A program made the position numbers and the translations under genes. The notes under the pieces were generated by a model. That model had not been told where the DNA came from. It made no database searches and saw only the letters and a list, made by a program, of their open reading frames with translations. DNA of 64,000 nt. It comes from Deltaproteobacteria bacterium (lineage in GTDB: Bacteria > JAGRBM01 > JAHCIT01). Positions 11,727-27,732 of the stretch are shown here, piece by piece. Position 1 is the first letter of the stretch, and the number at the start of each line of letters is the position of its first letter. The DNA is taken from positions 62,001-126,000 of the forward strand of contig JAHCIT010000004.1 of NCBI GenBank assembly GCA_026129095.1, given 5' to 3'.

Positions 11727-12044
11727 ATGGATACCGTCATCCACGGCTCCGGCGCACGGGCGCTCGGAGCGGCCATCATTGGCGGCGCGGTGCAGACGAT
11801 CCGCGACGCCATCGTTTCGCTCTCCGGTGACGCCGCGGACGGACCGGCCCGCCGCCGCCACTACAGGGCCATCGGGCCGGAAATCCGGTGGCTGGCGTCT
11901 GACGGGAACGGGCCGCTCTCCTTCGGCTGGCTGTGCGGGTGCCTCCGGCTGAACGCCGGGATGATCCGCCGCCGCGTCGCCCGCGAGCTTCTGGCCACCG
12001 GCGACCGGGAGCTGGAAAAGCTGGCGAAGCTGCTGGCCGCGTAG
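11727..12044 (+). CDS. Small phage-associated protein upstream of terL (positional small terminase or regulator candidate)
   Basis: ATG 11727 after an AAAGGA RBS, 105 aa. The pattern 'W..S....PLSF.WLC..L.L....IRR' is reminiscent of small uncharacterised phage-associated proteins; function not established. Confidence 0.55.
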   Translation: MDTVIHGSGARALGAAIIGGAVQTIRDAIVSLSGDAADGPARRRHYRAIGPEIRWLASDGNGPLSFGWLCGCLRLNAGMIRRRVARELLATGDRELEKLAKLLAA

Positions 12045-12057
12045 CCCCGAACCTGTC

Positions 12058-13290
12058 ATGGCAGGCGGCCTTCTCGTCCCCCACCCCCGCCAGCGGGAGT
12101 TCCTGGAGGCGGAGGAGAAGTTCGTCCTCTACGCGGGCGGCATCGGCAGCGGAAAGACCACGGCCGGGGCGATCCGGTTCCTCCGGCGCGCCCGGGACCA
12201 CGACACCAACGGCTACATCCTGGCGAACAGCTACGAGCAGCTCGACCGGGTGGCCGTGCAGGTGTTCATGTCGCTGGCCGAGGAGGGAGGCCACTCGCCC
12301 CGGCTCATCCGCAGCCGCCGCTCCATCGAGATGAAGGAGGCGCCGGCGAGGATCTTCTGGCACTCGACCGAGAACTACAACATGCTCCGCGGCGTCGAGA
12401 TGGGCTTCTTCTGGCTGGACGAGGCCCGCGACACGAGCCGCGAGGCGTGGCTGGTGCTCCAGGGAAGGCTCCGCCACCCTGGCGGGCCGCTCCGGGGCGA
12501 CCTTACCTCGACTCCGGCCGGCCTCGACCACTGGCTCTACGAGGAGTTCGCCTCGCCCGAGCGGCGGCCGGACACCCGGCTCGTCACGGGCACCTCCTAC
12601 GACAACGCCCTGAACCTGCCGCCCGGATATCTCGCCGGACTGGAAAATGCCTACACGGGCGACTGGTTCGAGCAGGAGGTGAACGCGCGGTTCGTGAACA
12701 CGGCGAGCGGCCGCTGCTACTACGCCTTCATCCGCCAGCGCCACGCCCATGAACCGGTCGCCCGCCACGCGGACCAGCCGGTGCATGTGGGCGTTGATTT
12801 CAACATCTCGCCCATGTCGGCGGTGTTCGCCCAGCACGACGGGGAAACCATCTCCGTTTTTACCGAATGGTCGGAGCGCAACTCCAACACGCCCCGGCTC
12901 GTTGACGCCATCAGCGCCATCGCCGGAAGCCGGTCGGTGCCCGTGCTGGTCTACCCGGACGCCTCCGGCGCGGCGAGACAGACGGCGGGGGATTCGGACC
13001 ACGCGCTGCTGAAGCGCGCCGGTTTCCAGGTGAACGCGCCCAGGTCCAACCCCGCCCAGCGCGACCGGGTGCAGACGGTGAACGTCGCCTTCAGCCGGAA
13101 CCGGCTCCGGATCGACCCCGCGGCGCGGCAGCTCATCCGCTCGCTGGAGGCGACCCGCTGGAAGGAGGGCAGGAACGAGATCGACAAGGGGCCGTCGGTG
13201 GAGCACCTCTCCGATGCCCTTGGCTACCTCGTCTGCCACCTGGAACCGGTCCTGTTGCCGAGGGTGAGTGTCAGTTCCCACAGGCTTTGA
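12058..13290 (+). CDS. terL: Terminase large subunit (PBSX/SPP1-like)
   Basis: Adenine-binding 'PHPRQ', Walker A 'GGIGSGKT', Walker B 'FFWLDE', coupling motif 'TSTP', and RNase H-like nuclease motifs 'GVDFN' and 'HLSDALGY'. Confidence 0.95.
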   Translation: MAGGLLVPHPRQREFLEAEEKFVLYAGGIGSGKTTAGAIRFLRRARDHDTNGYILANSYEQLDRVAVQVFMSLAEEGGHSPRLIRSRRSIEMKEAPARIFWHSTENYNMLRGVEMGFFWLDEARDTSREAWLVLQGRLRHPGGPLRGDLTSTPAGLDHWLYEEFASPERRPDTRLVTGTSYDNALNLPPGYLAGLENAYTGDWFEQEVNARFVNTASGRCYYAFIRQRHAHEPVARHADQPVHVGVDFNISPMSAVFAQHDGETISVFTEWSERNSNTPRLVDAISAIAGSRSVPVLVYPDASGAARQTAGDSDHALLKRAGFQVNAPRSNPAQRDRVQTVNVAFSRNRLRIDPAARQLIRSLEATRWKEGRNEIDKGPSVEHLSDALGYLVCHLEPVLLPRVSVSSHRL

Positions 13291-13300
13291 GGATATCCGC

Positions 13301-14701
13301 ATGCAGCTTCCCGAACTCCGCACCGCGGCCGACGCCGCGCCCGGCACGCTGAAGGCGCTCGCCGCCCATGTCCGCGCCCGGCGTCCCGCCTCGTACGACC
13401 GGCGGGTGGCCGAGGCGCGGGACTACTGGCACGACCGGTCGGGCGCACACCTGGCCGAGGACATCCGCAGCACCTTCAGCGACGGCGACATCCGGCAGAC
13501 GGTCGAGCGGAGCTCGATCACGCTGCCGCTGGTCCGGCGCGTGGTGCGGAAGCTGGCACGGCTCTACCACGCCGAGCCGGTGCGGCGCGTGCGCCCCGCG
13601 GGCGAATGCGCCGCCCACGAATCCTCAAGGGACGAAACGGAGCGGCGCTACCACCGGATCGCCACGGCGGGTGAACTCACCGAGACGATGCGGATGGCGC
13701 AGGAACTCTACACGCTGACGGGGCTTGTGTATGTCCGGGTTGGCTACGACCGGGGCATCTTCTTTGAAATCCTGGGAGGCGACGAGCTGCTGCCCGCCCT
13801 TCCCCCCGGCGCGCCCGCCAGCGATGTCGGCCGCTACCACTCGCTGCTCGTTCCTCGTACCGGCGGGGACGGCCGCGCCGAATACGTCTTCTGGTCGGAC
13901 CGGCTCCATTTCGTCTTCGACTCCGAGGGCCGCATCACCGGCGACTTCGGCGACCCGGCGCTGGAGAACCCGTACGGCCGGATCCCCTTCGTCCGTATTG
14001 ACGGCCGCACGGGGGAGCTTTTTCCCGATCCGCCGGAGTCCCTCGTCCGGGTGAACCGCGTCCTGAACTTCGCCCTGACGGAGCTTTTCTACACGATCAA
14101 GTTCCAGTGCTTTGGCCAGCCGGTGTGGGTGTCGGACGAGAACGTCGCGCCCGACTTCAAGGTGGGCGTGCAGCACCTCATCCATGTGGTGAAGCGCGAC
14201 CAGGCCGCCGCTGGGGATTTCCGCTTCGAGAGCCCCGACGCGCCGGTCGGGCCCGTGAAGGAAACCGTCTTCGAGGTGGCCCGCCTCGCGGCCCTGCTGG
14301 AGGGCGTCCCCGCCGACACGGTGGACGCACGCGGGCGGGTGGAATCGGGCGTCGCCAGGTGGCTCGCCCAGGCCGACAGCCGCGAGATCCACGCGGCCGA
14401 GGTGGCGAGGTTCCGCACGGCCGAGCGGCACATCTTCCGCACCGTGGCCGCCGTGCTCGCCCACCATGAACCCGGCGCGCCCCTCGGCACGGACCAGTTC
14501 ACCCTGGAGACCGATTTCGCCGATCCCGCCCCGCCGCTCAACCCCGGCGAGGAGCACGGCGCCGACGAGGCGGACCTGCGCCTGGGCGTCATCTCCCCGG
14601 CCGACCTGCTTCGCCGCCGCAACCCCGACCTCGCCCGTCTCTCCGAGGAGGAGATCCTCTCCCTGTGGAGACGGAACCGGGAACTGGCGCGGGAACCCTA
14701 A
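13301..14701 (+). CDS. Portal protein (SPP1 gp6-like)
   Basis: Follows terL, 466 aa, with 'ENPYGRIPFV', 'ESGVA' and C-terminal 'GVISPAD...NPDL'. GAGGA RBS before ATG 13301. Confidence 0.85.
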   Translation: MQLPELRTAADAAPGTLKALAAHVRARRPASYDRRVAEARDYWHDRSGAHLAEDIRSTFSDGDIRQTVERSSITLPLVRRVVRKLARLYHAEPVRRVRPAGECAAHESSRDETERRYHRIATAGELTETMRMAQELYTLTGLVYVRVGYDRGIFFEILGGDELLPALPPGAPASDVGRYHSLLVPRTGGDGRAEYVFWSDRLHFVFDSEGRITGDFGDPALENPYGRIPFVRIDGRTGELFPDPPESLVRVNRVLNFALTELFYTIKFQCFGQPVWVSDENVAPDFKVGVQHLIHVVKRDQAAAGDFRFESPDAPVGPVKETVFEVARLAALLEGVPADTVDARGRVESGVARWLAQADSREIHAAEVARFRTAERHIFRTVAAVLAHHEPGAPLGTDQFTLETDFADPAPPLNPGEEHGADEADLRLGVISPADLLRRRNPDLARLSEEEILSLWRRNRELAREP

Positions 14702-14712: not shown

Positions 14713-15150
14713 ATGCCAGACGACCCACTTGCCGGCCCCGGCGAAACGCCGGATGCCGCAGTCCCCGCGGGAACGGATACTCCCGCCGCCCCGCAGGACG
14801 GATGGGAAGAAGCCGCAAGGTCGCTTCTCGGTTCGCGCATCGCCCGGCTGCCGCAGCCCATGCAGGAGCTGGCGAAGTCGCTTCCCGGGGGGACCGCGCC
14901 CGGCGCGCTCGTGAAGTTCGTCGAGCAGGCCGAGGCGGCCGCTGCCGCCCTCGCTTCCGGCCCTCCGGTCCCGAAATCCACCGACGCACGGCGGACCGGG
15001 CACGGCGACGCGGGCCGGGCCGACGAACAGCTCTGGAACGAACTGATGCAGGACGGCCGGCGCGCGCTCGAACTCAGGCGCCGGCGGCCGGACCTCTATG
15101 ACGCCCTCCGCCAGCGGTTTGGCGGACGGCCCCGGACACGAAAGGACTGA
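14713..15150 (+). CDS. Capsid scaffolding protein (putative)
   Basis: Lies between portal and capsid, AAGGAG RBS. Low-complexity Pro/Ala N-terminus, helical body and a C-terminal 'RRRPDLYDALR' helix. Confidence 0.65.
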   Translation: MPDDPLAGPGETPDAAVPAGTDTPAAPQDGWEEAARSLLGSRIARLPQPMQELAKSLPGGTAPGALVKFVEQAEAAAAALASGPPVPKSTDARRTGHGDAGRADEQLWNELMQDGRRALELRRRRPDLYDALRQRFGGRPRTRKD

Positions 15151-15157: not shown

Positions 15158-16114
15158 ATGGCTTCCACGAAACTTTCCGACATCGTTGACCCGCAGGTGC
15201 TCGCCGACCAGGTGAGTGCCCTCTTCCCCGGACGCATCCAGCTGGAAGCGTGCGGCGCTGTTCTGGCCGAGACCAACGGCGATATCGCCTCTGGCGGAAC
15301 CCGCATCACGATCCCGCGCTGGAAGCGCGGCGGCGACATGGAACCCCTCTCGGACTCGGCGCCCCTGGGCATCGAGAAGGTGGACAGCGTGACCGAGCAG
15401 GGCGTGGTCGTCCGGCGCGGCAAGGCGTTCGGCGTCCACGACTTCGCCCGGCTGGTGTCACTGGACGACCCGCAGACCGAAATCGCCCGGCAGATCGCGG
15501 CGATCTTCGCCCGGCACCTGGACTCGACCCTGATTCACGTTCTGGAGGGGGCCATCCCCCCGGCCAACCGCCGGAACGTGGCCGTCACGAGCGGCTCGGC
15601 CATGAGGATCGGCAAGAGCAGCGTGCTGGACGCCATGTTCGCGCTCGGCGACAACGAGAGCGACCTCACGGCCGCCGTGATGCATTCAAAGGTGTTCAAG
15701 GACGCCTACGACCAGGGGCTCATCGTCTACTCGGACGTGCCAGCCGACGCCGTGAACCCCGGCGTCCGCTCCGGCCTCAAGGCGACGATCTTCGGCCGCC
15801 CGGTCTACGTGAGCGACCGGGTGCCGGTGGACACCACGGTACCGGACTACTTCGCCTACACGACCTTCTTCCTGGGGAGCCGGGCCCTGTACCTGGGCTA
15901 CCAGCGGGAGCTGACCATCGAGACCGACCGCGACGTGCTCACCAAGGAGGACATCATCTCCTTCGATGCCCACTTCGTCCCGCACCTGTTCGGCGTCGGC
16001 TGGACGGACGCGGCGAACAACCCCGGCAACGACGCCCTTGCCGACCCGGACAACTGGGACCTGAAGGCCGAGGATGCCAGGTCGGTGCGGGCGGTGGCGA
16101 TGGTGACGAACTGA
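15158..16114 (+). CDS. Major capsid protein, SPP1 gp13-like (HK97 fold, no fused delta domain)
   Basis: 'MASTKLSDIVDPQV', 'GGTRITIPRW', 'RRGKAFGVHDFARLVSLDDPQTEIARQIA', 'VMHSKV' and 'GRPVYVSD' resemble the SPP1-type coat. 318 aa. Confidence 0.9.
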   Translation: MASTKLSDIVDPQVLADQVSALFPGRIQLEACGAVLAETNGDIASGGTRITIPRWKRGGDMEPLSDSAPLGIEKVDSVTEQGVVVRRGKAFGVHDFARLVSLDDPQTEIARQIAAIFARHLDSTLIHVLEGAIPPANRRNVAVTSGSAMRIGKSSVLDAMFALGDNESDLTAAVMHSKVFKDAYDQGLIVYSDVPADAVNPGVRSGLKATIFGRPVYVSDRVPVDTTVPDYFAYTTFFLGSRALYLGYQRELTIETDRDVLTKEDIISFDAHFVPHLFGVGWTDAANNPGNDALADPDNWDLKAEDARSVRAVAMVTN

Positions 16115-16123: not shown

Positions 16124-17542
16124 TCAGGCGGCCGGAACCCGCACCCGCACGGTGGTTCCACGGCCGGGCGCGCTGTCGAACGTGACGTTGCCGCCCTGCC
16201 GGGTGACGAGCTCATGGACGATGTAGAGCCCCAGCCCCGCGCCGTGACCCTCGCCGGCCTTCTGGAGCGTGGCGAACGGCTTGAAGAGCGACGCATGGAG
16301 CTGTTCGGGGATTCCGCGGCCGGTATCGGCCACCTCGATCTCGATCTCGTTTCCGCGAGGGCGGATCGTGAGCCGGACCGGCTCGCGGCTTTCCGACTGG
16401 GCGGCGTTCTCCAGCAGGTTCATCACGGCGGTCGTGACCGGCCTGCCGTCCACGAGCCGCACTGCCGCCTCCGGACCGCAGGCGATCTCCACGGCGGGGT
16501 ATTTCCTGCGGACATCCGTGAGGACCGACTCCACGGGAATCTGCGACGGGGCCTTTTCCAGGTGCTCGGCCAGCTCGTACAGACGGTCCACGATCGCCGC
16601 GGCGCGCCCGTGGCCCTTCAGCGCGAGCTGGAGCATGCCCAGGGCGGCCTGCCTGTCGTCGGCCGAGAGCGTCGCCGACTGCCCGATCTCGTCGGTGAGC
16701 GTCTGGAGGATGGAGCCGCTCGATGCCAGCGGATTCCTCAGCTCATGGGCCGCGCCCGTCACCAGCGAGCCCAGCGAGGCGAGCGCCTCGGCACGGATGA
16801 GCTGGTCCTTGGAGTCCTTCAGCAGGACGTAGGCCTCGGCGAGCGCCTCCTCCCGGTCGCGCCACCGCTTGACGATATAGACCGAGAGCACGATGCACTC
16901 GATCATGATGAACAGGAACGCGCCGCCCATCGCGACAAGCCAGGCGCCCGAAAGGCGGCCGTCCTCATAAGGGGCGCCGGCCATCAGCGGCGCGTAGGGG
17001 ATGTAACCGAACCGCTCGGCGATGGTCGTCCCGACAATGACGAGCGAGCCCACCGTCACGCCGATCATGGCATCGCGGATCTCGAACAGGAGCATGGCGA
17101 CGAAGGTTCCGCCCACGAACACCAGCCCGGCATAGGGACTCGTGAGCGGACCGGTACTGTAGGAACCGTAACCGAAAGTGCCGGAGTAGAAGACGATGGT
17201 CGCCAGCACGATGGCGTGGTTCTGCGGATCGCGCTTCCGGATGGCGAAACCCCAGATGAGGATGGCCGCCCAGACGATGTTCATGCTGAGCAGCGTCTTC
17301 ATGAACAGGGCGAGATACTCCCGGTTCATGTAGGCCGCGCCCTCCGCATCGCTGAGCAGAGGGGTGAAACTGAGGACGACGAAGAGGATGAACACCGCCG
17401 TCGTCCCGGCGATGAGCAGCGACTTGTCCACCGGACTCCAGTCCAGAAGGTGCATCAGCTGGCTGATGATCCGGTCCTGCCAGCGCATGTTCTTGCCGGT
17501 TGCTTCCAAAACGGTTCCTTTGCCTGCGGCGGAGTATGCCAC
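16124..17542 (-). CDS. Membrane sensor histidine kinase inserted antisense in the virion cluster
   Basis: About 6 TM segments, H-box 'AAHELRNPL', N-box 'NLLENA', 'DTGRGI', 'FKPFAT' and 'GAGLGLYI'. Alternative start ATG 17488. Confidence 0.92.
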   Translation of the reverse strand: MAYSAAGKGTVLEATGKNMRWQDRIISQLMHLLDWSPVDKSLLIAGTTAVFILFVVLSFTPLLSDAEGAAYMNREYLALFMKTLLSMNIVWAAILIWGFAIRKRDPQNHAIVLATIVFYSGTFGYGSYSTGPLTSPYAGLVFVGGTFVAMLLFEIRDAMIGVTVGSLVIVGTTIAERFGYIPYAPLMAGAPYEDGRLSGAWLVAMGGAFLFIMIECIVLSVYIVKRWRDREEALAEAYVLLKDSKDQLIRAEALASLGSLVTGAAHELRNPLASSGSILQTLTDEIGQSATLSADDRQAALGMLQLALKGHGRAAAIVDRLYELAEHLEKAPSQIPVESVLTDVRRKYPAVEIACGPEAAVRLVDGRPVTTAVMNLLENAAQSESREPVRLTIRPRGNEIEIEVADTGRGIPEQLHASLFKPFATLQKAGEGHGAGLGLYIVHELVTRQGGNVTFDSAPGRGTTVRVRVPAA

Positions 17543-17571: not shown

Positions 17572-17955
17572 ATGGCGATAACGACCGAAACGATCGAAAG
17601 CCGCGACCCGGCGGTACGGGGCCGCCATCCGGCGGGAGCGGCGGACCACTCGGCCCAGATCACGGCCGCGCTCACGGAGCTGCGTCTGGACCTCGCGGCG
17701 AGGGGGCTCGCCTGGCAGGAGTTCGAGGGCGTGGACGGCGCGGGTGTCTATGACGGGACGAACCCGGAGCTGGACGCGCTGCACGAACTCATCGCCCTCG
17801 CCTTCATCCACCGCTCGCTCGCCGAAACCGCCGACGACCGGTGGGAGCGCGCCGCCCGCCACTACGAGCGGTGCTACCGCGAGCGCGTGGACACGCAGGA
17901 GTTCGCCACCTACCACGGCGCCGCCCACCAGCGGACGGCGCGGATTTTCCTGTAA
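17572..17955 (+). CDS. Head-tail adaptor/connector (putative)
   Basis: 127-aa helical protein and the first virion-strand gene after the MCP. 'WERAARHYERCY' helix and strong RBS. Confidence 0.55.
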   Translation: MAITTETIESRDPAVRGRHPAGAADHSAQITAALTELRLDLAARGLAWQEFEGVDGAGVYDGTNPELDALHELIALAFIHRSLAETADDRWERAARHYERCYRERVDTQEFATYHGAAHQRTARIFL

Positions 17956-17994: not shown

Positions 17995-18513
17995 ATGTCA
18001 TCCCAGACCGTGAAAAACGGATTCGCCGCGCTTGGCGTGACGGCGACATACAAGTCGGTGAACCTCGGCCCCACAGTGGGCGGCGCATCGCTCCGGATCG
18101 AGCGCGAGCTTGTCGAGATCCTCACCGACGAGCGCGGGCTGACGCCCGTGGACTACCTCACGCACGGCCTGAAGAAGGTGGACGTGACCTTAAGCCTCGC
18201 CCGCTGGTCGCTCATGAACTTCCAGGCGGCGTTTCCGGAGTTCACGCTCACGGGCTCTGGCGACGACCGCAAGCTCGACATCCGCGCCGACACCGGCACC
18301 TCGCTGGAGTCGAAGGCGGGGCAGCTCGTGCTGCATCCGGTGTCGCTCCTGGACGGCGACCGGACCTTCGATCTCACCTTCTGGAAGGCGGCCGTCATCT
18401 CGCCGCCGGAGCTGGCCTACCGGGGCGAGCAGGCCCCGGTGGAACTCACCTTCCGGGCGCTGCCCGATTCCAGCGGCCTGCTGCTCACGATCGGCGATCC
18501 GTCAGTCACCTGA
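17995..18513 (+). CDS. Major tail (tube) protein, siphovirus type
   Basis: The pattern 'LGPTVGG', 'D..G.TPV', 'LVLHP...D...D..FWKA', 'EL.Y', 'TFRALPD' matches non-contractile tail tubes. 172 aa. Confidence 0.8.
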   Translation: MSSQTVKNGFAALGVTATYKSVNLGPTVGGASLRIERELVEILTDERGLTPVDYLTHGLKKVDVTLSLARWSLMNFQAAFPEFTLTGSGDDRKLDIRADTGTSLESKAGQLVLHPVSLLDGDRTFDLTFWKAAVISPPELAYRGEQAPVELTFRALPDSSGLLLTIGDPSVT

Positions 18514-18569: not shown

Positions 18570-18863
18570 ATGTCCCATCACGATCTTTCAGCCCTGCGGA
18601 GCCGCCTCACGGTGAAGCTCCGCCAGAAGACCTACAGTTTCGACGAGCCCACGCTCGCGCAGATCGCCGCGCTGGTGGAAGCGAGCCGCCCCGGATCGCA
18701 GCCCGTGGAGATGGCACTCCAGTTCCGCCACGCCCTCCGGGGCATGGTTCCGGAACTGACCGACGGAGATGCCGACTACCTGCTGACGCCGCGGGTATTC
18801 GAGGCGTTCCTCAAGATCCTCACCGGGGAGACCCGCGAAGACCCTCCCCGCGGGCGGAACTGA
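18570..18863 (+). CDS. Tail assembly chaperone (gpG-like)
   Basis: AAGGAGG RBS and ATG 18570, directly after the tube gene. 97 aa, ending ...EDPPRGRN. Confidence 0.7.
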   Translation: MSHHDLSALRSRLTVKLRQKTYSFDEPTLAQIAALVEASRPGSQPVEMALQFRHALRGMVPELTDGDADYLLTPRVFEAFLKILTGETREDPPRGRN

Positions 18864-19222
18864 ACGCGCTGGCCGGGATCGCCGCCAGGGCCGCCTTCAG
18901 GCTCGGCCTTTCGCCCGGTGAAACGCTGTCGCTTCCGCCCTCGTTCCTGAAAGCCCTGCTCGCCCGTGCCGACGAGCTTCACGCGGCCTCCCGGATGGAA
19001 TGGCTCGACATCCTCGCCGCCGCCGCGCTGGAACCCTGGCAGACGGGCAGCGGGCAGTCGGCCTACCGGCGGCTCCGGACCGTGCTCGCCAGCCGGTGCC
19101 CAGGCGACCCGGATACCGCCGCGCCGTCCACCGCCGGCGAGCTCATCGCCCTCTATGCCGCCGCCGTCCACCCCGGCCGGCTGGCCGAACTCGCGGGGGA
19201 GCTGAATCCATGTCCCACCTGA
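18842..19222 (+). CDS. Tail assembly chaperone extension (gpT-like), probably reached by -1 frameshift
   Basis: The -1 frame relative to 18570 is open across the gpG stop and reads PSPRAELNALAGIAARAAFRLGLSPGETLSLPPSFLKALL... The first ATG is only at 18995. Confidence 0.65.
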   Translation, partial: PSPRAELNALAGIAARAAFRLGLSPGETLSLPPSFLKALLARADELHAASRMEWLDILAAAALEPWQTGSGQSAYRRLRTVLASRCPGDPDTAAPSTAGELIALYAAAVHPGRLAELAGELNPCPT

Positions 19223-19632
19223 CGGAACTCACGGATCTCGTACAGACGGTGCTGGGGACGCTCGTTCCCGGCGACGGGCGTCTTGTGCCCGAACGCGGGG
19301 GCCTCACCCAGTCGGGCCGGACCTTCGACGTGCGGCCCGTGGGCGCCACCGTGCAGTCCTGGGAACGGCCGGGCGATGCGGCGAAGGCGAACCTCGGCGA
19401 AAGATTCGTCATCGAGATCCGGTTCGTCATGGCCGCGCAGGCCTCGGCAGTCCGGACGGCCGCCGTGGCCCACGCCTCGAATATCCTCTCCGGGCTCGCC
19501 GACACGGGGAACCTCCCTCCCGGCGGCACCCTCTCGCAGGTGATCCCCGGCGCGCCGGTCATCCGGACGAAGACGCCGCCCGGCGGCCCGGCCACGGTGA
19601 CGCTGGAACTGCCCGTGACGGTGTATTCGTAA
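19210..19632 (+). CDS. Putative tail completion/terminator protein
   Basis: 140 aa, GGGGAG RBS. N-terminal helix and terminal beta strand 'VTLELPVTVY' as in gpU-like proteins; the call rests on size and pattern. Confidence 0.45.
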   Translation: MSHLTELTDLVQTVLGTLVPGDGRLVPERGGLTQSGRTFDVRPVGATVQSWERPGDAAKANLGERFVIEIRFVMAAQASAVRTAAVAHASNILSGLADTGNLPPGGTLSQVIPGAPVIRTKTPPGGPATVTLELPVTVYS

Positions 19633-19647: not shown

Positions 19648-19765
19648 CAGGAAACCACACCCCCTGACCCCCTCTCCGCAGACGCAGAGAGGGGGGAACA
19701 GGAAGGAGCCTTTCCCGCCCCCTCTCCGTGACCACGGAGAGGGGGATGGGGGGAGTGGTTTCCTG
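19648..19765. repeat. REP-doublet/MITE-like palindromic element
   Basis: Ends CAGGAAACCAC / GTGGTTTCCTG are inverted. It contains two CCCCTCTCC..GAGAGGGG hairpins, and cccctctccgtgaccacggagaggg is identical to 11531-11555. Confidence 0.85.
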
Positions 19766-20492: not shown

Positions 20493-22040
20493 ATGCCAGT
20501 CCTCGCCAGCCGTCAGGCCCTGCTCGTTCCGTCCGTGGAACTGGAAGGGGAGCTGCGCTTCCGTCTGGACGGCGAGGACTGCACGGCGGTCCTCGCCCGT
20601 GCCTTTTATTCGCCGCCATCGCTGGCCGCCGCACTCCGGGCGGCCATGCGCGCCGCGCTGCCGGTTCTCGAAGACGAAGCGGCCTGCGGCTTCCGGCTCC
20701 ATTTCATTCTCGCGGCGGCACTTTCCGGCGGCGAGGCGGTGAACACCGGCGGCGCGCTCGCCTGGACGAACACGTCCGCGGGGCTTCCACTCACGATCCT
20801 CCACTCCAGTCCGCTGTCGCGGATCGAAACCCCGGACGGCTGGCCGCTGGTCGCGGGCGACGGGGCGCACGCCGATCTCGCCGTCGCGCCGGGAAACCGG
20901 GTCCAGTGGACCCATGCCGGAGACGCCGTGCCGAATCCCGTCCAGCCGTGCCAGTTCGTCTGGCCCCAGCTCCGGGGCCGCGCGCGGCTTTCGGAGCGGC
21001 GGATCACGGGCGACTTTTCCACACGCACCCACGCCCAGGCCGAGGACGGCCGCCTGTGGCCGGTGGCCAGGGGCGCACAGCGCCGGTGGGAGCTTTCCTT
21101 CGGGCCGCTCTCCGCCGCCGGCTGGCGGGCACAAGGCTGGGACCGGACCACCGGAAGTGGCGGCGCGCTGGAACAGGGCTCGATGATGACCTTCTTTCCC
21201 GATACTGGCCGCGAGACGGCCCTCCCCGTGCGGCCGCTGAACCGCACGATCGAGGTGGAACGGACCGTGCCGGGCTACCGGTCGGTGAAGCTCCAGCTCG
21301 CGGCGCAACCTGTACCCGATGGCGGCGGTTTCACCTACGGCCGGGAGTTTTCGGTCGAGACCGTCAGCGGCTCCCTGACGGAAACCTTCGGCGGCGACAC
21401 CGCCCACTTCAGCGCCGATGGCGGCGCGCTGAAACAGTCCGGCGCCACGCCCTCGCCGGCCTCGGTGTTCGTCCGGCTATGGCCGCTTGATGAAAGCCTC
21501 CACAGCTCGAACCTGCTGGCGAGCGTGAAGCTGTGGCGCACGTTCCCGTTCGTGGCCAGTGGCAGCGGATGGGAGGCCGGCATCGCGCTCTCGCACGCCA
21601 GCGGCAAGGCGGGCGTGGCCGTCACCGCGTCCGAAGGCCCCGCGCACCGGGAGCTCCGGGCCTGGGCCATTCACACCGACGGCAGCAAAAGCCCGCCCGT
21701 GACGCTCGGCGTCCTGCGCGGGAACATCCCCCGCTCGGAGGGGATGCAGGAGCGGCCGGACCGGAGGTTCATCGCCCGGTTCTGGTACGTGCCGCTCGGC
21801 AGCGGCGCGGCGCTGACTCGGGTGCGTGCCTGGTACAACGGCGAGGGCCCCTTCGACGGACAAGTCATGCACGGTTTCGACACCGGCGGCGGCGACCTCG
21901 CCTGGATGCCGGTATGCTCGAACGGAACCTCGCCAGCCTCGACGACCTGGTGGAAGGCGTTCCGGTTTCACGAGGACGCCTCCGGCTGGCTCGGCCCGGA
22001 CGGGCTGCCGCTCCTGCTGGGAAGCGTGGAGAATATATAG
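20493..22040 (+). CDS. Putative distal tail / tail-tip associated protein
   Basis: Coupled to the TMP (TGAAATG), 515 aa, beta-rich C-terminal half. Assignment is positional. Confidence 0.45.
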   Translation: MPVLASRQALLVPSVELEGELRFRLDGEDCTAVLARAFYSPPSLAAALRAAMRAALPVLEDEAACGFRLHFILAAALSGGEAVNTGGALAWTNTSAGLPLTILHSSPLSRIETPDGWPLVAGDGAHADLAVAPGNRVQWTHAGDAVPNPVQPCQFVWPQLRGRARLSERRITGDFSTRTHAQAEDGRLWPVARGAQRRWELSFGPLSAAGWRAQGWDRTTGSGGALEQGSMMTFFPDTGRETALPVRPLNRTIEVERTVPGYRSVKLQLAAQPVPDGGGFTYGREFSVETVSGSLTETFGGDTAHFSADGGALKQSGATPSPASVFVRLWPLDESLHSSNLLASVKLWRTFPFVASGSGWEAGIALSHASGKAGVAVTASEGPAHRELRAWAIHTDGSKSPPVTLGVLRGNIPRSEGMQERPDRRFIARFWYVPLGSGAALTRVRAWYNGEGPFDGQVMHGFDTGGGDLAWMPVCSNGTSPASTTWWKAFRFHEDASGWLGPDGLPLLLGSVENI

Positions 22041-22056
22041 AAGATGCCCAAATAGA

Positions 22057-22137: not shown

Positions 22138-22371
22138 TTACTTGGTCTTGGCCGCTTCCTTCTCGGCCTTCTTCTCGGCCTTCTCTTCTTTCTTCGCATC
22201 CTTGCTCTCGGCGGATGCCGGGGCGGCAGGGGTCGCCGGAGTGGCCGGCTTGCCTGCTTCGGCCGCCGGGGTGGCGGGCGTGGCCGGCTTGGCCGCTTCA
22301 GCCGCCGAGGCGATCAGGGGCGTGCCCGCGATCATTGCCGAGAGGAGTGCTGCTTCGATGGTGCGTTTCAT
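22138..22371 (-). CDS. Small secreted Ala/Pro/Lys/Glu-rich low-complexity protein
   Basis: AGGAG RBS, signal peptide ending ASA, tandem 'AAEAxKPATPATP' repeats and a KAEK tail. 77 aa. Confidence 0.75.
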   Translation of the reverse strand: MKRTIEAALLSAMIAGTPLIASAAEAAKPATPATPAAEAGKPATPATPAAPASAESKDAKKEEKAEKKAEKEAAKTK

Positions 22372-22624
22372 GGTCGGACTCCTTAAGTCCATTCACGTCC
22401 GGCATCCCGGAAGAACCGAAGACCCCGCTCATGTGTCCCCATGACACACGGTTTCGGAGCCTTCTCAGCGGTTTCCCTGGCGAACCGGAGCTGGAACATG
22501 AATACCGCAGCCGGATTAAAATTAGCGCGCTTTCAGATTAACACCGGAATAAGCCTACATTAATTGCCAGAACGGCAGCGGGATAGAGAACACCGGCAAC
22601 CTGCGGTCAACCCGGCGAGCCGGT

Positions 22625-23386
22625 TCAGGTTTCAGCCGGTGACGGCCGTTCTCTTGTTTCACTGCCCGAAACCCATGCCGCATCGTCCTCGCCCGCTTTC
22701 AGGCCGATGGTCCGCCGGAGAATCCGTTCCAGCACGATGAAGAACCGGGTAGTAGCCAGCACCGGGTTCAGCCACCCGACGGTGATGCAGTAGTAGGTAT
22801 CGAACGGCACGGTGTGGTGGATCTGGTGGTGGTCTGGCGGGAGGATGAGCCGCCACTTCTGGAGAAGCCGGACGAAACCGGGAACGGTGTCCGCATGGGC
22901 CCACTTGTGAAACTGGTTCGTGGCGAAGACGAACAGGCAGAGCCAGAGCGTGTGCGCCGTGGCGGCGAGGCCGAGGAGTCCCGCGCCTTCGGCCGGGAAC
23001 GACAGGAGCACTCCCGTCTGGAGCGGCACCGACACGATGCAGTTCGCACCGTTCGTCTCGATGAAGTCGTGCCGGGTAATACCCTTGGGGTCCACATGAT
23101 GCTCGCGGAACGGGCGGACGAAGTTCGGGCCGAAAACCGGCGTGTTCACCGTGCCGTAGCGGTCGGCCATCCAGTGAACGAAGCCGGAGACGAAATCGGC
23201 CAGCAGGTAGCCGCCGGGAACGGCCAGGATGAACACCGCCCACGCGGCGGGGCTGTCAATCCAGCGGGCGAGCCCCAGCGAGCGCGAGAACAGCGCCGCC
23301 GACAGCAGGAGGCACCCGGCGATGCCGGCGATCTCCAGCATCCGGTGGACAGGTGAATAGCTGTAGCTGCGCGTTTTCCCTCGCAT
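22625..23386 (-). CDS. carF: CarF/TMEM189-family plasmanylethanolamine desaturase
   Basis: 'DFVSGFVHWMADRYG', 'FREHH.DP..ITRHDFIETNG', 'TNQFHKWAH', 'HHQIHH' and 'YYCITVGWLNP'. Confidence 0.92.
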   Translation of the reverse strand: MRGKTRSYSYSPVHRMLEIAGIAGCLLLSAALFSRSLGLARWIDSPAAWAVFILAVPGGYLLADFVSGFVHWMADRYGTVNTPVFGPNFVRPFREHHVDPKGITRHDFIETNGANCIVSVPLQTGVLLSFPAEGAGLLGLAATAHTLWLCLFVFATNQFHKWAHADTVPGFVRLLQKWRLILPPDHHQIHHTVPFDTYYCITVGWLNPVLATTRFFIVLERILRRTIGLKAGEDDAAWVSGSETRERPSPAET

Positions 23387-23480: not shown

Positions 23481-24020
23481 TCAGGGAGTGCCGATGCTCA
23501 CAAGCTGCGGCGTGCGCCGAAGGCGCGTGACATCGTAATCCTGCCCGCGGAGGCGGCCGAGGATGCCCTCGTAGACATCCGTGTCCAGAACTGGCGTGCG
23601 CGACAGCACCCACAGGTAGTTCCGGCCCGGATGGCCGACCACCGCCCAACGGTAGTCCGGGTCCAGGTCGATCACCCAGTAGCTGCCGTAAAAGGGCCAG
23701 AAGAAGGTCACCTTCAGCTTCGCGTTGGTCGCCGTGTCCACGACGCGGGCCGTCCCGCGGACGCTGCGGACGGGGCCGTCGAGGGTTTTCTCGCGGCACT
23801 GGTTGAAGACGCCGATCCGGCCGTCCGGCTCCAGCGTGTAGGTCGCCATCGAGGCGACGCAGCCTTTCTGGAAACGGTTGGGGAAGCTGGCGATCTCGTA
23901 CCAGTCGCCGAGATACCGCTGGAGGTCCACCTTCTCGACCGTGTGCAGCGGCTTGCCCGCGGCGCAGCCGCCGGGAAGCAGGGCGATGATCGAAGCGAGG
24001 AGCCGGATGAGGGTTCGCAT
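23481..24020 (-). CDS. blc: Outer-membrane lipocalin
   Basis: Lipobox 'PGGC', 'VDLQRYLGDWYEIA', 'KLKVTFFWPFYGSYWV' and 'YLWVLSRTP'. Start at ATG 24020. Confidence 0.93.
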   Translation of the reverse strand: MRTLIRLLASIIALLPGGCAAGKPLHTVEKVDLQRYLGDWYEIASFPNRFQKGCVASMATYTLEPDGRIGVFNQCREKTLDGPVRSVRGTARVVDTATNAKLKVTFFWPFYGSYWVIDLDPDYRWAVVGHPGRNYLWVLSRTPVLDTDVYEGILGRLRGQDYDVTRLRRTPQLVSIGTP

Positions 24021-24035
24021 GGGAGCAAGGATAAT

Positions 24036-25928
24036 ATGACCGCCTTCGACGATGCCATCGCCCGGCCGGAACTCCAGCCGGTGTGGGTCGTGGAGTTTCA
24101 CGCCCCCCGCCGTGCCATCGCCGCGCTCCCAGCCCACGGCGATGAACTCATCTGTCTTGAAGAAGGCGAGAGTTTCGGCGGCTTCCCGGCCACCGGCTAC
24201 CTGCTCATCGGCAATGACGAGAAGACGGGAGAAATCGTCCGCTACGTCGGGCGGAGCCCGGACGGCACGGCGATCACGGGACTGGTCCGCGGGCGGTTCC
24301 GGTCGGCGGCGCGGGAATGGCCCGGCGGAACGGTGGTGAGGGAGTGGGGCCTCGGCCGCGTCTTTTCGACGCTCCCCGTGGCGGCCTTCCCGGACGCGCT
24401 CCCCATCCTGCTGGACCCTGCCCTCAGCCCCCGGACGCTCGACGAAGAGCGGCTCACCTCGGCGGTGGGTTCGTTCACCTTCCGGCTGGCCGACATGGAC
24501 AGCTTTACCAGCACACTGATCGCGCTCACTCCGCTCCGGCGGCGGGGCGTGACGCTATGGCTGGGATTTCCCGGCATCACGGAGCCGGAAGGGTTCCGCG
24601 CCGTCGCACGCGGCCGGGTGCAGGAGGTGACGAGCGACGACGGCGGCGCGATCTGGCGGTTCCAGTGCCGGAGCCTGCTGGCCGACCTCAAGGACCAGCG
24701 GCTGTTCCTGGACCGCCGCTCGCGCCTCACCGGAGCCGTGACGGGCGTCCAGACGTCGCTGCCGGTCGCCGACACCGGAAGATATCTCCCCAATACCGGC
24801 GGCCTCGTCCGCCACGTCCGGGTCGGCGACGAGATTGTCTCCTACGCCGGGCGGAGTACCGCCAGCGGCGCGGGGAACCTCACCGGCTGCGTGCGCGGGT
24901 TGTTCCAGTCCGTCGCCGCCGCCCACGAAGCCGGAGACGAGGCGGTGCAGGTTTATGAACTCTCCGGGCACCCGCTCACGATCCTGCTGAACATCCTCGC
25001 CACGACCGAAACCGGCGGCAGTGGCCCCTACGACGACCCGGCCTTCCGGGGCGGAGCGGCGCTGGGACTTGATCCGGACCTGGTGAACACCGGGCAGATC
25101 GAGCAGACGCGGGACTCGCTGCTGCCTGCCCTTTTCGCCCGGTTCCTCATTGACCGGGAAACCGACGACGCGAAGCGGTGGATCGAGGAGGAACTCCTGC
25201 AAGCCTGCGGCGCGGCGCTCATCGAGGAGTCCGGCGGACGGCTATCGGTCCGGTTCATGGGGCCGCCCTCGCCCGCCGAGACGCCGGCCGTGCTGGACGC
25301 CGCGGCCCGGATCCCCGCAGGGGAGCGCATGGACCTGGGGCTCGGCCGAATCCGCAACGCGATCGAGATCCGCTACTCACGCGATCCGGTGGACGGCGTT
25401 TGTCTCGAACGGCTTCTCTACCTGGACGCCGATTCGGTGAGCCGCCACGGCGCGGCCCCAAAGCTCACGCTGGAGTTCGGCGGCCTGCACGGACCCTGGT
25501 CGCCGCTCGGCGATCACGGCGGCGACGCCCACGCGCTCAGGCTGGCCTCGCGGCTCGCCCTCCAGCTTTCGCATCCCCGGCCGCGCCTCCGGACCGGCGC
25601 GGCCTTCGGCCTTCTCACGGCCGGCATTGGCGACACGGCGGTGCTCGCCCACGGCCGCCTGCCTCCCGGCCAGCCGGACGAATCGCTCCCGCCGGAACGG
25701 GCGGCAAAAGACAGCCGGGCGCGGCTGGTGGAGATCGTCAGCACGCACCTCGACATGCAGACGGGCATGGCGGTTCTCGACGTGCGCGAGTCGCCCTTCG
25801 AGATGCTCCGGTACGCCTTCATTCACCGGAACGGCGCTCCGGATTTCGATGACGCGGACGTTCTGGACCGCCAGTACGCCCACCACGCCGGGGACAGCGG
25901 CCCGGACTATGCCATCTACCCCGCCTGA
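24036..25928 (+). CDS. Tail tip/hub protein (630 aa)
   Basis: AAGGA RBS and ATG 24036. Two copies of a phage-tail-type motif 'EI+.Y.G....+TG.VRG.F.S.A....G..V', plus 'DSVSRHG'. Confidence 0.7.
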   Translation: MTAFDDAIARPELQPVWVVEFHAPRRAIAALPAHGDELICLEEGESFGGFPATGYLLIGNDEKTGEIVRYVGRSPDGTAITGLVRGRFRSAAREWPGGTVVREWGLGRVFSTLPVAAFPDALPILLDPALSPRTLDEERLTSAVGSFTFRLADMDSFTSTLIALTPLRRRGVTLWLGFPGITEPEGFRAVARGRVQEVTSDDGGAIWRFQCRSLLADLKDQRLFLDRRSRLTGAVTGVQTSLPVADTGRYLPNTGGLVRHVRVGDEIVSYAGRSTASGAGNLTGCVRGLFQSVAAAHEAGDEAVQVYELSGHPLTILLNILATTETGGSGPYDDPAFRGGAALGLDPDLVNTGQIEQTRDSLLPALFARFLIDRETDDAKRWIEEELLQACGAALIEESGGRLSVRFMGPPSPAETPAVLDAAARIPAGERMDLGLGRIRNAIEIRYSRDPVDGVCLERLLYLDADSVSRHGAAPKLTLEFGGLHGPWSPLGDHGGDAHALRLASRLALQLSHPRPRLRTGAAFGLLTAGIGDTAVLAHGRLPPGQPDESLPPERAAKDSRARLVEIVSTHLDMQTGMAVLDVRESPFEMLRYAFIHRNGAPDFDDADVLDRQYAHHAGDSGPDYAIYPA

Positions 25929-25949: not shown

Positions 25950-26441
25950 ATGCCCGCCTATACCGCCATCACCGACGCCACGCTCACCGCCGGGCGGCCC
26001 ATCACCGAGACGCTGATGCGGACGATCCGGGACAACCTGGACCACCTCAAGAACGCGACGGACGGGCTCACCAGCAACGTGACCGTGACGGGCGGCCCCG
26101 GCACTCCGGCGACCGCGAGCACCTCCTATGTGACCGTCACGCGCAACCGGCTTTATCTCGAAGCCGGGACGTACACCTTCCGGGGACATGCCGAGATCAT
26201 GGTCCTCGACGGGAACTGCACCACCGACACGGCCCATGTCCGGCTGAGAATTGGCGGCGAGACGTTTCTTGAGGAAACGTCGGCCGCCTGCGCCGCTTTC
26301 GATGCCGTGAGCGGAGGGACCGCCGGGATCGCCGTCGCCACGGGCGGCTGGACCGACCTCGAAGTGCAACTGAAGACATCGAACGCCGCCAAACAGGCCG
26401 CCCACCGCCACATCACGGTGTCGTGGCTGAAGACGGCATAA
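25950..26441 (+). CDS. Putative short tail fibre protein
   Basis: AAGGAG RBS. N-terminal 'YTAITD...GRPITETLMRTIRDNLDHL' resembles fibre anchor segments, followed by a beta-rich domain. Confidence 0.6.
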   Translation: MPAYTAITDATLTAGRPITETLMRTIRDNLDHLKNATDGLTSNVTVTGGPGTPATASTSYVTVTRNRLYLEAGTYTFRGHAEIMVLDGNCTTDTAHVRLRIGGETFLEETSAACAAFDAVSGGTAGIAVATGGWTDLEVQLKTSNAAKQAAHRHITVSWLKTA

Positions 26442-26454
26442 GGAGAAACATGCC

Positions 26455-26844
26455 ATGCCCGAAACCAACATTGACCCCGACGTCCGGATCGAGGCCGCCT
26501 CGTTCACCGCCGACGGCGTGTACGTGGTCCGCGATCTGGACGGGCGGCCCCTGTCGTGGACGTTCAACGGCACGCTTCCCGGCCTTGGCTTCGGCGGCGG
26601 CACGATCGCTGTCGAGGCGACGAACCTCTCGGCCGCCGACACCGGCCTGTCCGGCGGGGACTGGAGCGCCGACACCGGAAACGGAATCTGGGAGCCGGTC
26701 ATGGCCGAGGACGCCCCCATCCTCATCACCGGCTCGGCGACCGGCTGGATCGACGCCCCGTTCCGGTTCGTCCGGTTCCGGCTGTCGGGGTCGAGCGAGC
26801 CGTCAATCCTGGGCCGTGTGCTGGCCGGTGTCCGCGGCCTTTAG
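26455..26844 (+). CDS. Small beta-sandwich virion accessory/decoration protein (putative)
   Basis: AAGGAG RBS. The pattern 'FGGGTIAVEATN...W...PFRFVRFRLSG' resembles small phage structural proteins. Confidence 0.5.
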   Translation: MPETNIDPDVRIEAASFTADGVYVVRDLDGRPLSWTFNGTLPGLGFGGGTIAVEATNLSAADTGLSGGDWSADTGNGIWEPVMAEDAPILITGSATGWIDAPFRFVRFRLSGSSEPSILGRVLAGVRGL

Positions 26845-26872
26845 GGATTTCCATACTTCAAGGAGACTGTTC

Positions 26873-27442
26873 ATGCCCGTTCCAGGACGAAAATCACCAG
26901 GCATCCCGGCCTTCCAGAAGGGCCAGCCAAACGGCGTCGCCCCGCTGGATGGCGGCGCAAAGGTTCCGGTGGAGAACCTGCCGGACGATACCGGCGGCAG
27001 CGCCACCTACGTCCCCTGGTATCCGTTCATCGCTTCGACCGCCCACGCCTTCAGCGTTGCGGGCAGCACGCCCACGGCGCGGAACAGCTCGCTCGTCGTG
27101 GACAGGGCCGGCAGTTACCGGCCGAAGCTCATGGTCCGGGTGTCGGCCGTCACCGGCAGCCCGACGCTGGTCCGGGTGACGGCGAACGTGGCGCTGTACG
27201 CGGTGAAACCGGACGGCACGAGCCGGACGCTCTACGCACAAAATGACGAGATCGCCGTCCACGACAATGGCAGCACTTACGCCACGAACGACTTCGCGGT
27301 GCTCACGGGCGGGGCGATTTCGCTCAACGCCGGAGAGACAATCATGCAGAACGGAAACTCCAACCCGTTCAGGTTCCTCTGCAACGGGAGCGGGACGCAG
27401 GTGGATGCCTTCTCGTCGGCCTTTTATCTGGAGAAGCAGTGA
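26873..27442 (+). CDS. Fibre/spike protein
   Basis: AAGGAG RBS and ATG 26873. Contains the phage fibre motif 'KGQPNGVAPLDGGAKVPVENLP'. Confidence 0.7.
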   Translation: MPVPGRKSPGIPAFQKGQPNGVAPLDGGAKVPVENLPDDTGGSATYVPWYPFIASTAHAFSVAGSTPTARNSSLVVDRAGSYRPKLMVRVSAVTGSPTLVRVTANVALYAVKPDGTSRTLYAQNDEIAVHDNGSTYATNDFAVLTGGAISLNAGETIMQNGNSNPFRFLCNGSGTQVDAFSSAFYLEKQ

Positions 27443-27732
27443 TGGATGATCTCGCCCGGACCGGAGTCGAGCTGGTCGTCACCACGGGAGCGGTGCTGAT
27501 CGGGGTCCTCAAGATGCTGCCGCCGCTGCTCCTGCGCGCCGTGGAGACCCAGATCGGGCGGCAGCCCGCCGCCCAGGGCCCCGAAGCCCTCACCCCCGTG
27601 GTCGCCTCGATGGACGGCCTGCGCTCGGAAATGGGCGCGCTCCGCCACGAACTGCGTGACCTGCGCGAAACCCTGACCGAGCACCGGATGGACACCGCCG
27701 AGCGGCTCACCCGGCTCGAATCCCTCAAGTGA
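27442..27732 (+). CDS. Holin-like single-TM coiled-coil protein
   Basis: TGATG overlap with the fibre gene, one hydrophobic segment, then heptads ending 'ERLTRLE'. Last gene of the module. Confidence 0.5.
   Translation: MDDLARTGVELVVTTGAVLIGVLKMLPPLLLRAVETQIGRQPAAQGPEALTPVVASMDGLRSEMGALRHELRDLRETLTEHRMDTAERLTRLESLK

Follow-up and report, generated by a model that had tools for sequence, protein, structure and literature searches.

The DNA analysed here is a window of 64,000 nucleotides, corresponding to positions 62001-126000 of a 335-kb contig (C18) in the genome G000 (3.67 Mb in 23 contigs, completeness 96.65%, contamination 0.41%), and its central feature is a cluster of phage-like packaging, head and tail genes at 11727-27732. 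The cluster opens with the ATG of a terS-like gene at 11727 and closes with the stop of the last plus-strand open reading frame (ORF) at 27732. A first-pass annotation of the window had placed the limits at the same positions and had proposed that the cluster is a gene transfer agent (GTA) that arose by independent domestication of a phage. For comparison, G000 was set beside three genomes of a sister genus (G001-G003), with which it forms the family genomes, and two genomes of a second family (G004 and G005). These six species genomes are all that a phylum-scope search returned, and they are called the phylum here. Because the phylum holds only six species genomes, the deltaproteobacterial or Myxococcota lineage that had been suggested does not suit this organism.

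The DNA of the window has a G+C content of 64-71%, at which every frame holds long ORFs, and genes were therefore called from the third-position GC signal. The plus-strand genes of the cluster are as follows.

11727..12044, plus: terS-like small protein, 105 aa, placed by position only, directly upstream of terL
12058..13290, plus: large terminase TerL, 410 aa (Pfam Terminase_6N, 5.8e-15, and Terminase_6C; phrog_2, 9e-38)
13268..14701, plus: portal protein, SPP1 gp6-like, 477 aa, from the ESM Atlas; the true start may be the ATG at 13301
14713..15150, plus: p14, short scaffold-like protein, 145 aa, by position only
15158..16114, plus: major capsid protein (MCP), SPP1 gp13-like, 318 aa (PF20036 Gp13-like, 1.9e-14; phrog_247, 2.7e-46)
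17572..17955, plus: p127, candidate head-tail connector, by position only, between MCP and tube
17995..18513, plus: p172, tail tube protein, 172 aa (phrog_2175, 2.4e-21, full length)
18570..19222, plus: tail assembly chaperone, G (p117) at 18570-18863 with a -1 frame extension at 18863-19222, a G/GT arrangement
19210..19632, plus: p140, tail completion or connector candidate, with its own ATG and a GGAG motif
19808..20491, plus: p227, short tape-measure-like protein, 227 aa, by position and composition
20493..22040, plus: p515, weakly distal-tail-protein-like (Dit), from ESM Atlas leads with scores of at most 0.83
24036..25928, plus: tail hub (baseplate hub or Tal, T5 pb3-like), 630 aa, by profile, AlphaFold2 (AF2) and Foldseek
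25950..26441, plus: p163, putative tail-tip accessory protein (weak match to phrog_48, 'tail protein', E 0.054)
26455..26844, plus: p129, called from its coding signal, 61% identical in G001
26873..27442, plus: p189, fibre-like protein with an N-terminal tail-fibre motif (phrog_28171, 6.6e-6; phrog_7389, 1.3e-5)
27439..27732, plus: p97, small protein with a single hydrophobic helix at the N-terminus and a coiled-coil tail, resembling a holin by eye only

An AAGGA/GGAG-type motif lies 8-16 nt upstream of 13 of the 16 plus-strand starts, and the G+C content at third codon positions (GC3) of the cluster, 0.82-0.92, falls at the 83rd-99th percentile of 2689 crude ORFs of G000 and equals that of neighbours such as gyrA. 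The ribosome-binding sites and host-like GC-rich codons described in the first-pass annotation are thus borne out. Its statement that the cluster lies entirely on one strand is not, as minus-strand genes occur inside the cluster at 16124-17542, 22138-22392, 22625-23386 and 23481 to ~24000. Its terL and portal hold, the latter because the protein groups with SPP1_portal clusters in the ESM Atlas (feature score 0.98, template modelling (TM) score 0.75-0.77), although it has no match in Pfam, in PHROGs or, by sequence profile, in the PDB. The ORF that had been taken for the MCP (455 aa, 16214-17581, plus) was rejected, since the GC frame plot and Pfam identify it as the shadow of a histidine kinase gene on the opposite strand, and the ORF that had been taken for the scaffold is the real MCP. 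With a Gp13-like MCP, an SPP1_portal-like portal and no protease family matched, the SPP1-type head without a recognisable protease stands as proposed. Among the tail genes, the tube, the G/GT chaperone and the tip hub are supported and the fibre is suggested by a short motif; the adaptor, the tape measure and the holin were assigned from position, composition or inspection by eye.

All five TerL orthologues share invariant columns recognised as catalytic motifs, which we take to be Walker A, Walker B, the TSTP coupling motif and three nuclease Asp residues. The start of the MCP in public gene calls is Met21 of a longer ORF, which gives the length of 318 aa, and the protein is 79-80% identical to its counterparts in the sister genus and 51% identical to that of the other family. 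The short p14 has no family match; it shows a coding signal and an ATG with an AAGGAG motif upstream, and it is kept in all five cluster-bearing genomes at 37-64% identity. The terS-like protein matches nothing in Pfam, PHROGs or NCBIfam, and has orthologues in all three other family genomes (34-43% identity for two aligned pairs); the upstream part of its longer ORF is a copy of a repetitive extragenic palindromic (REP)-like element. In G004, a small ORF upstream of TerL (L036, 13728-14144) appears helix-turn-helix-like by eye (sigma-70 region 4 type), and it is not alignable to the terS-like protein of the G000-G003 family, which suggests that the small terminase has been replaced.

In the neck and tail, p127 has no significant family or PDB match and is kept in five of the five cluster-bearing genomes. 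In Pseudomonas phage nickie, a homologue of the tube protein occupies the place of the tube gene, with two small ORFs separating it from the tape measure gene; an AF2 model of the G000 tube protein from a four-sequence alignment was too poor to use (predicted local distance difference test (pLDDT) score 31.7). The gene that follows the p127 homologue in G004 (L005, 2407-2943; 178 aa) is unrelated to the family tube (26% identity, poor alignment), and the neck region therefore differs between the two families. In four of four family genomes, the extension ORF behind p117 lacks its own start codon and stands in the -1 frame, overlapping the last part of p117, and a canonical X XXY YYZ slippery heptamer is found near the end of G in the three sister-genus genomes. 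In addition, p140 is present in all four family genomes. The candidate tape measure protein p227 follows the chaperone and directly precedes the Dit-like gene, with a helical N-terminus and a Gly/Ala-rich hydrophobic centre; its sole match to a tape measure family is non-significant (phrog_2854, E 0.29). The N-terminal 270 aa of p515 lie near small viral tail proteins (DUF2460 and Sipho_tail clusters) in the Atlas, and the p515 query had no match in G004 or G005.

The tail hub has 752 homologues among 1.84 billion representatives, and a 56-sequence profile built on it matches the phage Chi tail-tip minor tail protein (9e-9) and a J-domain protein (7.5e-4) in the PDB. Its AF2 model (pLDDT 89.4, predicted TM score 0.89) places the T5 and DT57C tail-tip hubs on top in Foldseek (4e-12 to 1e-9), followed by lambda J and the gp27, Mu gp44 and VgrG hubs, with a chain of the RcGTA virion, 6tba_8A, at rank 45 (E 3.4e-5). 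An 821-aa ORF at 23463-25928 was rejected as a single gene, its first 190 codons being the shadow of a minus-strand lipocalin gene, and an ORF at 26423-27442 was likewise divided into two genes, 26455-26844 and 26873-27442. Beyond the hub, p163 is kept in G001 and G003, p189 was not found in G001, and p97 has no family match and was not found in the relatives. Only a short PHROG motif at its N-terminus marks p189 as fibre-like. The sister genus has a conserved ORF of ~160 aa with a hydrophobic C-terminal segment at the far end of its cluster (L008 9576-10064 in G001, L035 1008-1433 in G003, L049 1718-1891 in G002); no counterpart was found in G000, and the product could be holin-like or fibre-associated.

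Between the blocks of structural genes lie minus-strand genes of host type and REP-like hairpins.

11448..11674, no strand: cluster of REP-like hairpins, CCTCTCC-N7-GGAGAGG, upstream of the terS-like gene
16124..17542, minus: histidine kinase, 472 aa (HisKA, 1.7e-5; HATPase_c, 1e-25)
19648..19765, no strand: pair of REP-like hairpins between p140 and p227
22138..22392, minus: 84-aa protein with a signal peptide and a Lys/Glu/Pro-rich tail
22625..23386, minus: lipid desaturase (PF10520, 3.5e-56), in G000 only
23481..24137, minus: lipocalin, Blc-like (PF08212, 8e-52), true start probably near 24000

The kinase sits between MCP and p127 in G000, G001 and G002, whereas these two genes abut in G003 and G004, and full-length relatives of the kinase (40-45% identity) occur at other sites in G004 and G005. 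The gene for the 84-aa secreted protein, whose tail is rich in Pro-Ala-Thr and Lys-Glu, lies between p515 and the hub in four of four family genomes, with two copies in G002, and the lipocalin gene is found at the same position in G003, that is, in two of the four family genomes. The hairpin motif occurs 45 times in G000 and 0-2 times for five scrambled controls. All five copies in the window fall within two intergenic regions of the cluster, four of them at 11448-11674, where a perfect 61-nt direct duplication is included. In the whole genome, the hairpins are found on contigs C11, C12, C17, C18 and C22, concentrated on the higher-GC C18 (21) and C11 (15), and they frequently coincide with contig ends, the points at which assemblies break. 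Similar hairpin-like sequences were seen by eye in intergenic translations of G001, and perhaps of G002, at other positions.

The cluster is not confined to G000. The MCP profile finds one copy in five of the six phylum genomes, and G004 also carries, on four short contigs, TerL (46%), portal (42%), p14, p127 and hub (36-37%). The gene order is the same in all cluster-bearing genomes, and the downstream flank (p193m, esterase, response regulator, kinase) is common to G001 and partly to G002 and G003. The upstream flank differs: the sister-genus version matches contig C19 of G000, and that of G004 matches genes 30 kb downstream on C18, together with C2 and one gene on C1. Relative to G000, the well-conserved cluster genes of the sister genus are 54-80% identical, the host flanks 58-85% and GyrA 82-84%, with 30-50% identity for the terS-like protein, the GT extension, p140 and p515. 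For G004, the values are 37-51% for cluster genes and 38-67% for host flanks, and GyrA is 65-66% identical (also in G005). Therefore, the cluster has been inherited vertically with the host genome, as indicated by its presence in five of six genomes, the host genes at shared internal sites, the shared downstream flank and a divergence that scales with GyrA and the flanks; the tree test, taken up below, is a weak one.

Selection was examined by Nei-Gojobori estimates of the ratio of nonsynonymous to synonymous divergence (dN/dS, omega), in which dS is saturated at 0.5-1.7, so that the apparent omega values are upper bounds. For 12 of the 15 cluster gene segments they are 0.18-0.56, well below 1: MCP 0.22-0.26, tube 0.18-0.28, portal 0.19-0.42, p127 0.22-0.41, p14 0.21-0.44, p117 0.21-0.48, p227 0.28-0.44, hub 0.30-0.43, TerL 0.42-0.51, p515 0.42-0.56, p129 0.42 and p163 0.50, with flanking host genes at 0.11-0.36. 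These estimates indicate that the structural genes are under purifying selection, and the conserved catalytic motifs of TerL, together with the conserved portal, argue that DNA packaging itself is under selection.

The flanks belong to the chromosome. The genes gyrA (5335-7812), uppP/BacA (36070-36921) and polA (61286-64000, minus), which the first-pass annotation had named as core-gene neighbours, are all confirmed. A Pfam scan of 23 flanking ORFs gave host-type families or, for three ORFs, no match: upstream, PhoH/PIN, GST, GyrA, an ABC binding protein and proteins of the double-zinc-ribbon, TPR and HD types; downstream, an esterase, two response regulators, a kinase, an aminoacyl-tRNA synthetase-like protein, DUF481, BacA/UppP, an FGE-sulfatase, permeases, a PAS kinase and PolA. 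The seven tyrosine and two serine recombinases of G000 are all on other contigs, so that the 335-kb contig has none; no tRNA gene was found in the window; the longest direct repeat between the two borders, 12 nt, equals the shuffle maximum and gives no att-like repeat; and no cluster ORF matches a sheath family. Replication and repressor genes were absent among the cluster and the 23 flanking ORFs scanned with Pfam, no exhaustive search having been made. The earlier claim that selfish phage functions are missing thus stands for recombinases, tRNA, att-like repeats and sheath, and for repressor and replication genes as far as the Pfam scan of the 23 ORFs reaches. Genes for integration, replication and lysogeny control are therefore absent in or beside the cluster, although ORFs without a family could still hide such functions.

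The locus also differs from the familiar kinds of phage-derived elements. Only structural genes lie between host genes, with no att-like repeat and no recombinase on the contig, which sets it apart from an intact prophage, and a satellite of the phage-inducible chromosomal island type is not indicated, as there is no integrase on the contig and the cluster has tail genes of its own. In addition, head and packaging genes are present and conserved and no sheath was matched, which distinguishes the cluster from a tailocin or PBSX-like element. A PF03237 search shows that the cluster TerL is the sole Terminase_6N gene of G000; with no other terminase in the genome, there is no obvious helper prophage.

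Known phages are distant. In 50,697 phage records, the best matches are 33% identical for MCP (Bacillus, Terrisporobacter and Acinetobacter siphoviruses) and 31% for TerL (Kagunavirus and Jersey-like phages). The MCP alignment, scanned by a method that depends on short exact patterns, gave only distant matches in IMG/VR, 37% at best, and in a genome collection it reached the three sister-genus genomes alone. Among 5.8 billion proteins searched by a word index, no more than four MCPs were found at E<=1e-10, all from the family of genomes to which G000 belongs.

Metagenome contigs hold the locus and its embedded host genes unbroken. The locus, kinase and lipocalin island included, is present at >=99% identity on contigs of 8-13 kb in two DNA runs from different studies (soil and activated sludge), contig depth is equal over cluster and flanks, and no contig bridges an empty site; the runs may include the source sample and thus may not be independent. 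Joints in contigs were considered as signs of excision and rejected, since their sides measure 20-30 nt and several better-supported joints lie at REP hairpins. A metatranscriptome run gave short contigs on MCP, p515, the 84-aa secreted-protein gene, the desaturase and the flanks, the uncovered parts being uninformative, and these contigs are at most a hint of transcription. The two contigs on the 84-aa gene (21960-22159 and 22181-22408) have a depth of 21-37, the highest of the 20-kb stretch. One RNA-library run that covers cluster and flanks evenly may be DNA and was not counted as transcription.

For the cluster as a whole, we consider the chances about even that an SPP1-like siphovirus left it behind as a domesticated remnant, fixed in the chromosome and inherited vertically since before the two families split, with a GTA-like function as the best reading. 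The proposal made in the first-pass annotation is thus retained in its main part, a structural-only, host-kept cluster in five of six genomes with omega below 1, no recombinase on the contig and neither att-like repeat nor tRNA in the window, and is amended in its gene map, which was partly wrong. A terminase with intact motifs, a portal, an MCP and a complete-looking non-contractile tail would imply DNA-filled tailed particles, and these particles, with no way to replicate or excise DNA of their own, would carry host DNA. Carriage of host DNA by particles is the working definition of a GTA, as given in parts of PMC11841831 and PMC9662315, and the view in a section of PMC7947584 that GTAs arise from headful packagers agrees with this reading. 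According to the same sources, GTAs are core head-tail clusters with accessory genes elsewhere, known GTAs package 4-14 kb, which is too small for all production genes, and the GTA small terminase lacks a detectable DNA-binding domain (PMC11841831); the RcGTA-type TerL groups with headful packagers (PMC7947584); and there have been a handful of independent GTA origins, with genes established for three (PMC9662315).

The proposed mode of action follows the layout of the cluster in three plus-strand blocks with host genes between them. The first, for head and packaging, would comprise the terS-like gene, TerL, portal, short scaffold and MCP; the second, for neck and tail, the connector, tube, G/GT chaperone, p140, short tape measure and Dit-like gene; and the third, for the tip, the hub, three small tip or fibre proteins and a small membrane protein. 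Mobile functions would have been lost or never kept, while host genes and REP elements settled between the blocks. Under host control, a fraction of cells would express the blocks, procapsids would assemble without a protease as in SPP1, and the terminase would fill the heads with the available DNA, that is, the host chromosome. Short non-contractile tails would then attach, a tape measure of 227 aa implying a length of ~35 nm, and the released particles would deliver DNA to kin, acting as a GTA of independent origin. In GTAs, host regulators govern production, and lysis of a subpopulation releases the particles. A functional link of the embedded kinase to the cluster is hypothetical, as is one of the regulators downstream; the conserved downstream flank (30503-33390) holds two response regulators, one with DUF4388, and another kinase.

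Several observations weigh against a GTA-like function or against parts of the reasoning that leads to it. The GTA status is read from genes alone and stands as unproven, and an SPP1-sized head could hold the whole 16-kb cluster, unlike the heads of known GTAs. The terS-like, scaffold, tape-measure and Dit assignments come from position or weak leads, no endolysin was recognised among the cluster ORFs, and the candidate connectors are two only, p127 and p140, whereas siphoviruses and RcGTA use three or more connector proteins. The G/GT site of G000 has no canonical slippery heptamer. Constraint is weak on the terS-like gene (apparent omega 0.62-0.83), the GT extension (0.40-0.80) and p140 (0.62-1.01), and the hub gene of G001 has an in-frame TAG (L008, 4312-4314) where the other three genomes keep a Tyr codon. 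Beyond this TAG the sequence is still well conserved; a recent nonsense mutation, an error in the assembly and read-through are all conceivable. Opposite-strand host genes that split the structural genes could mark decay, and in G005 (93% complete, 480 contigs) none of five cluster queries matched. Finally, the concatenated six-protein tree of five taxa is star-like within the family and does not reject the sister-genus clade (P of the approximately unbiased test (p-AU) 0.13), so that the congruence of cluster and host trees foreseen in the first-pass annotation is compatible with the data in a weak test.

Alternative explanations were ranked with a killer particle first, then slow decay, then an unrecognised mobile phage. 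Everything that speaks for domestication would apply equally if the particles had been selected for another function, such as PBSX-like killing with incidental host DNA, DNA release or kin discrimination, and the sequence does not single out DNA delivery as the selected function. The distal fibre genes vary as well, p189 and p97 being absent from what was found in G001 and other ORFs standing in G001 and G003, as would be expected if target recognition were under diversifying pressure. However, terminase motifs and portal are conserved, so that packaging is under selection, and the cluster specifies a non-contractile tail with a T5-type hub, whereas classical killer particles have contractile tails or are headless tailocins. 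PBSX is likewise a chromosomally fixed, phage-derived particle gene set; it is non-propagating and packages host DNA, and it has a contractile tail with a sheath. In the cluster no sheath is recognised, and the tube, the G/GT arrangement and the T5-type hub point to a non-contractile tail. We therefore regard selection for such another function as unlikely, while taking it seriously.

It is improbable that the cluster is an ancient defective prophage without function, in which conservation reflects slow decay or selection on a few genes. Such a history would account for the nonsense codon in the G001 hub gene, the lack of any cluster gene found in G005, the few connector genes and unrecognised endolysin, the inserted host genes and REP elements, and the omega values of 0.6-1.0 for three small genes. 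Against it, ~13 kb of ORFs have remained unbroken in four to five genomes despite differences at 20-60% of residues, 12 of 15 segments have omega values similar to those of the flanks, the catalytic motifs of TerL are invariant, and the frameshift arrangement is kept in four of four family genomes. A still-mobile temperate phage or helper-dependent satellite, with its other modules elsewhere or unrecognisable and with separate entries at a preferred site, is very improbable. In its favour, many cluster ORFs have no known family and could hide novel functions, the upstream flank differs between genera and the within-family cluster tree is unresolved. Speaking against it, the contig carries no recombinase and the window neither a tRNA nor an att-like repeat, the same host genes stand at the same internal positions in different genomes, each cluster-bearing genome has one copy, divergence scales with that of host genes, no close relative appears in the IMG/VR scan or among cultured phages, and the two DNA runs show equal contig depth over cluster and flanks and no empty-site contig.

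Returning to a GTA-like function, the closest known parallel is RcGTA. Its genes are arranged as terS, terL, portal, head proteins, connector, tube, frameshifted chaperone, short tape measure, distal tail, hub and fibres, and the gene order of the cluster parallels this arrangement. Both are head-tail clusters of ~15-16 kb without integration or replication genes and are inherited vertically, and they share GC-rich genes, a short non-contractile tail (here a prediction) and an apparent reliance on accessory functions elsewhere. RcGTA has an HK97-type capsid with a prohead protease and tail families of its own type. In contrast, the Pfam names found in the cluster are Terminase_6N, 6C and 3 and Gp13-like only, with no RcGTA-type family matched, its head is of the SPP1 gp13/gp6 type with a scaffold-like gene and no prohead protease, and its hub matches T5 pb3 best, 6tba_8A being one gp27-like hub among many. 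In addition, the cluster is interrupted by host genes, belongs to a host of another, tiny phylum and is known from genes alone. Because the head type differs and no RcGTA-type family was matched, the cluster is not a member of the RcGTA family (Rhodogtaviriformidae), and the resemblance is one of architecture and evolutionary mode. The general features of GTAs used in this comparison come from parts of PMC11841831 and PMC9662315.

The cluster can also be likened to two other systems. In SPP1 the likeness is in the MCP (PF20036 Gp13-like) and portal (SPP1_portal-like) families, the head without a protease, the siphovirus-type tail with a G/GT chaperone and the membership of TerL in the broad Terminase_3 and Terminase_6N families. 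The tape measure protein of SPP1 has ~1000 aa. The cluster differs from SPP1 in its candidate of 227 aa, in identities of at most 33%, in having no recognised replication, lysis or early genes and in having fewer connector genes. VSH-1 of Brachyspira hyodysenteriae has host-kept head, tail and lysis genes that are split by non-GTA genes, and its function has been shown experimentally. By description, the division of a phage-derived gene set by non-GTA genes is similar to that in the cluster, although the host phylum is another one and the cluster is known from genes alone. A title on the 'divided genome for VSH-1' appears in the reference list of PMC11841831.

We tentatively suggest, as a possibility that remains on the doubtful side, that the cluster is a further independent origin of a GTA, from an SPP1-like siphovirus in an uncultured candidate phylum of six species genomes, with host genes for signalling and the envelope incorporated in it, and that it would constitute a new viriform family in which the embedded kinase may control production. 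New here would be the different head type and a phylum without a cultured member, and a narrow literature search, with supplementary files outside its scope, yielded neither a GTA with an SPP1-type head nor one from a candidate phylum. If this were true, the domestication of headful siphoviruses into host-serving particles would be more widespread than thought, and the cluster would offer a second, unrelated system for the changes from phage to GTA, such as a short tape measure, an altered small terminase, loss of the protease and host regulators. It would also reveal a route of gene exchange in otherwise unknown soil and activated-sludge bacteria. If the cluster is not a GTA, the long-term retention of a full head-tail module under selection would still need an explanation.

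Other searches of the window added little. Rfam over the whole window at gathering thresholds gave no match; the promoter scan (one promoter-like site, with 0.9 expected) and the terminator scan (16 terminator-like sites, with 9.3 +/- 3.0 expected) were uninformative. NCBIfam on 10 cluster proteins matched a single family at E 0.05 with 11.3 bits, far under the curated cut-off of 1400 and hence of no use; the small cluster ORFs had only non-significant PHROG matches with E allowed to reach 5; and PDB profile searches with portal, p515, tube and p127 found nothing significant. The minus-strand gene p193m (28449-29030), just outside the cluster, encodes a Cys-rich protein of ~180 aa with no Pfam family. 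Its distribution matches the five of six genomes that carry the cluster, and a link to the cluster was nevertheless dropped, since the family is very widespread: it has 1412 matches, with 60-78% identity among the 120 best listed, and source names among the listed matches include Bacillota, Spirochaetia and Pirellulales. Contigs C1-C23 of G000 have G+C fractions of 0.59 to 0.665 and mean GC3 values of 0.69 to 0.86, the GC-rich contigs being C18, C22, C11 and C15, and homologies of the flanks place C18, C19 and C2 in one and the same lineage.

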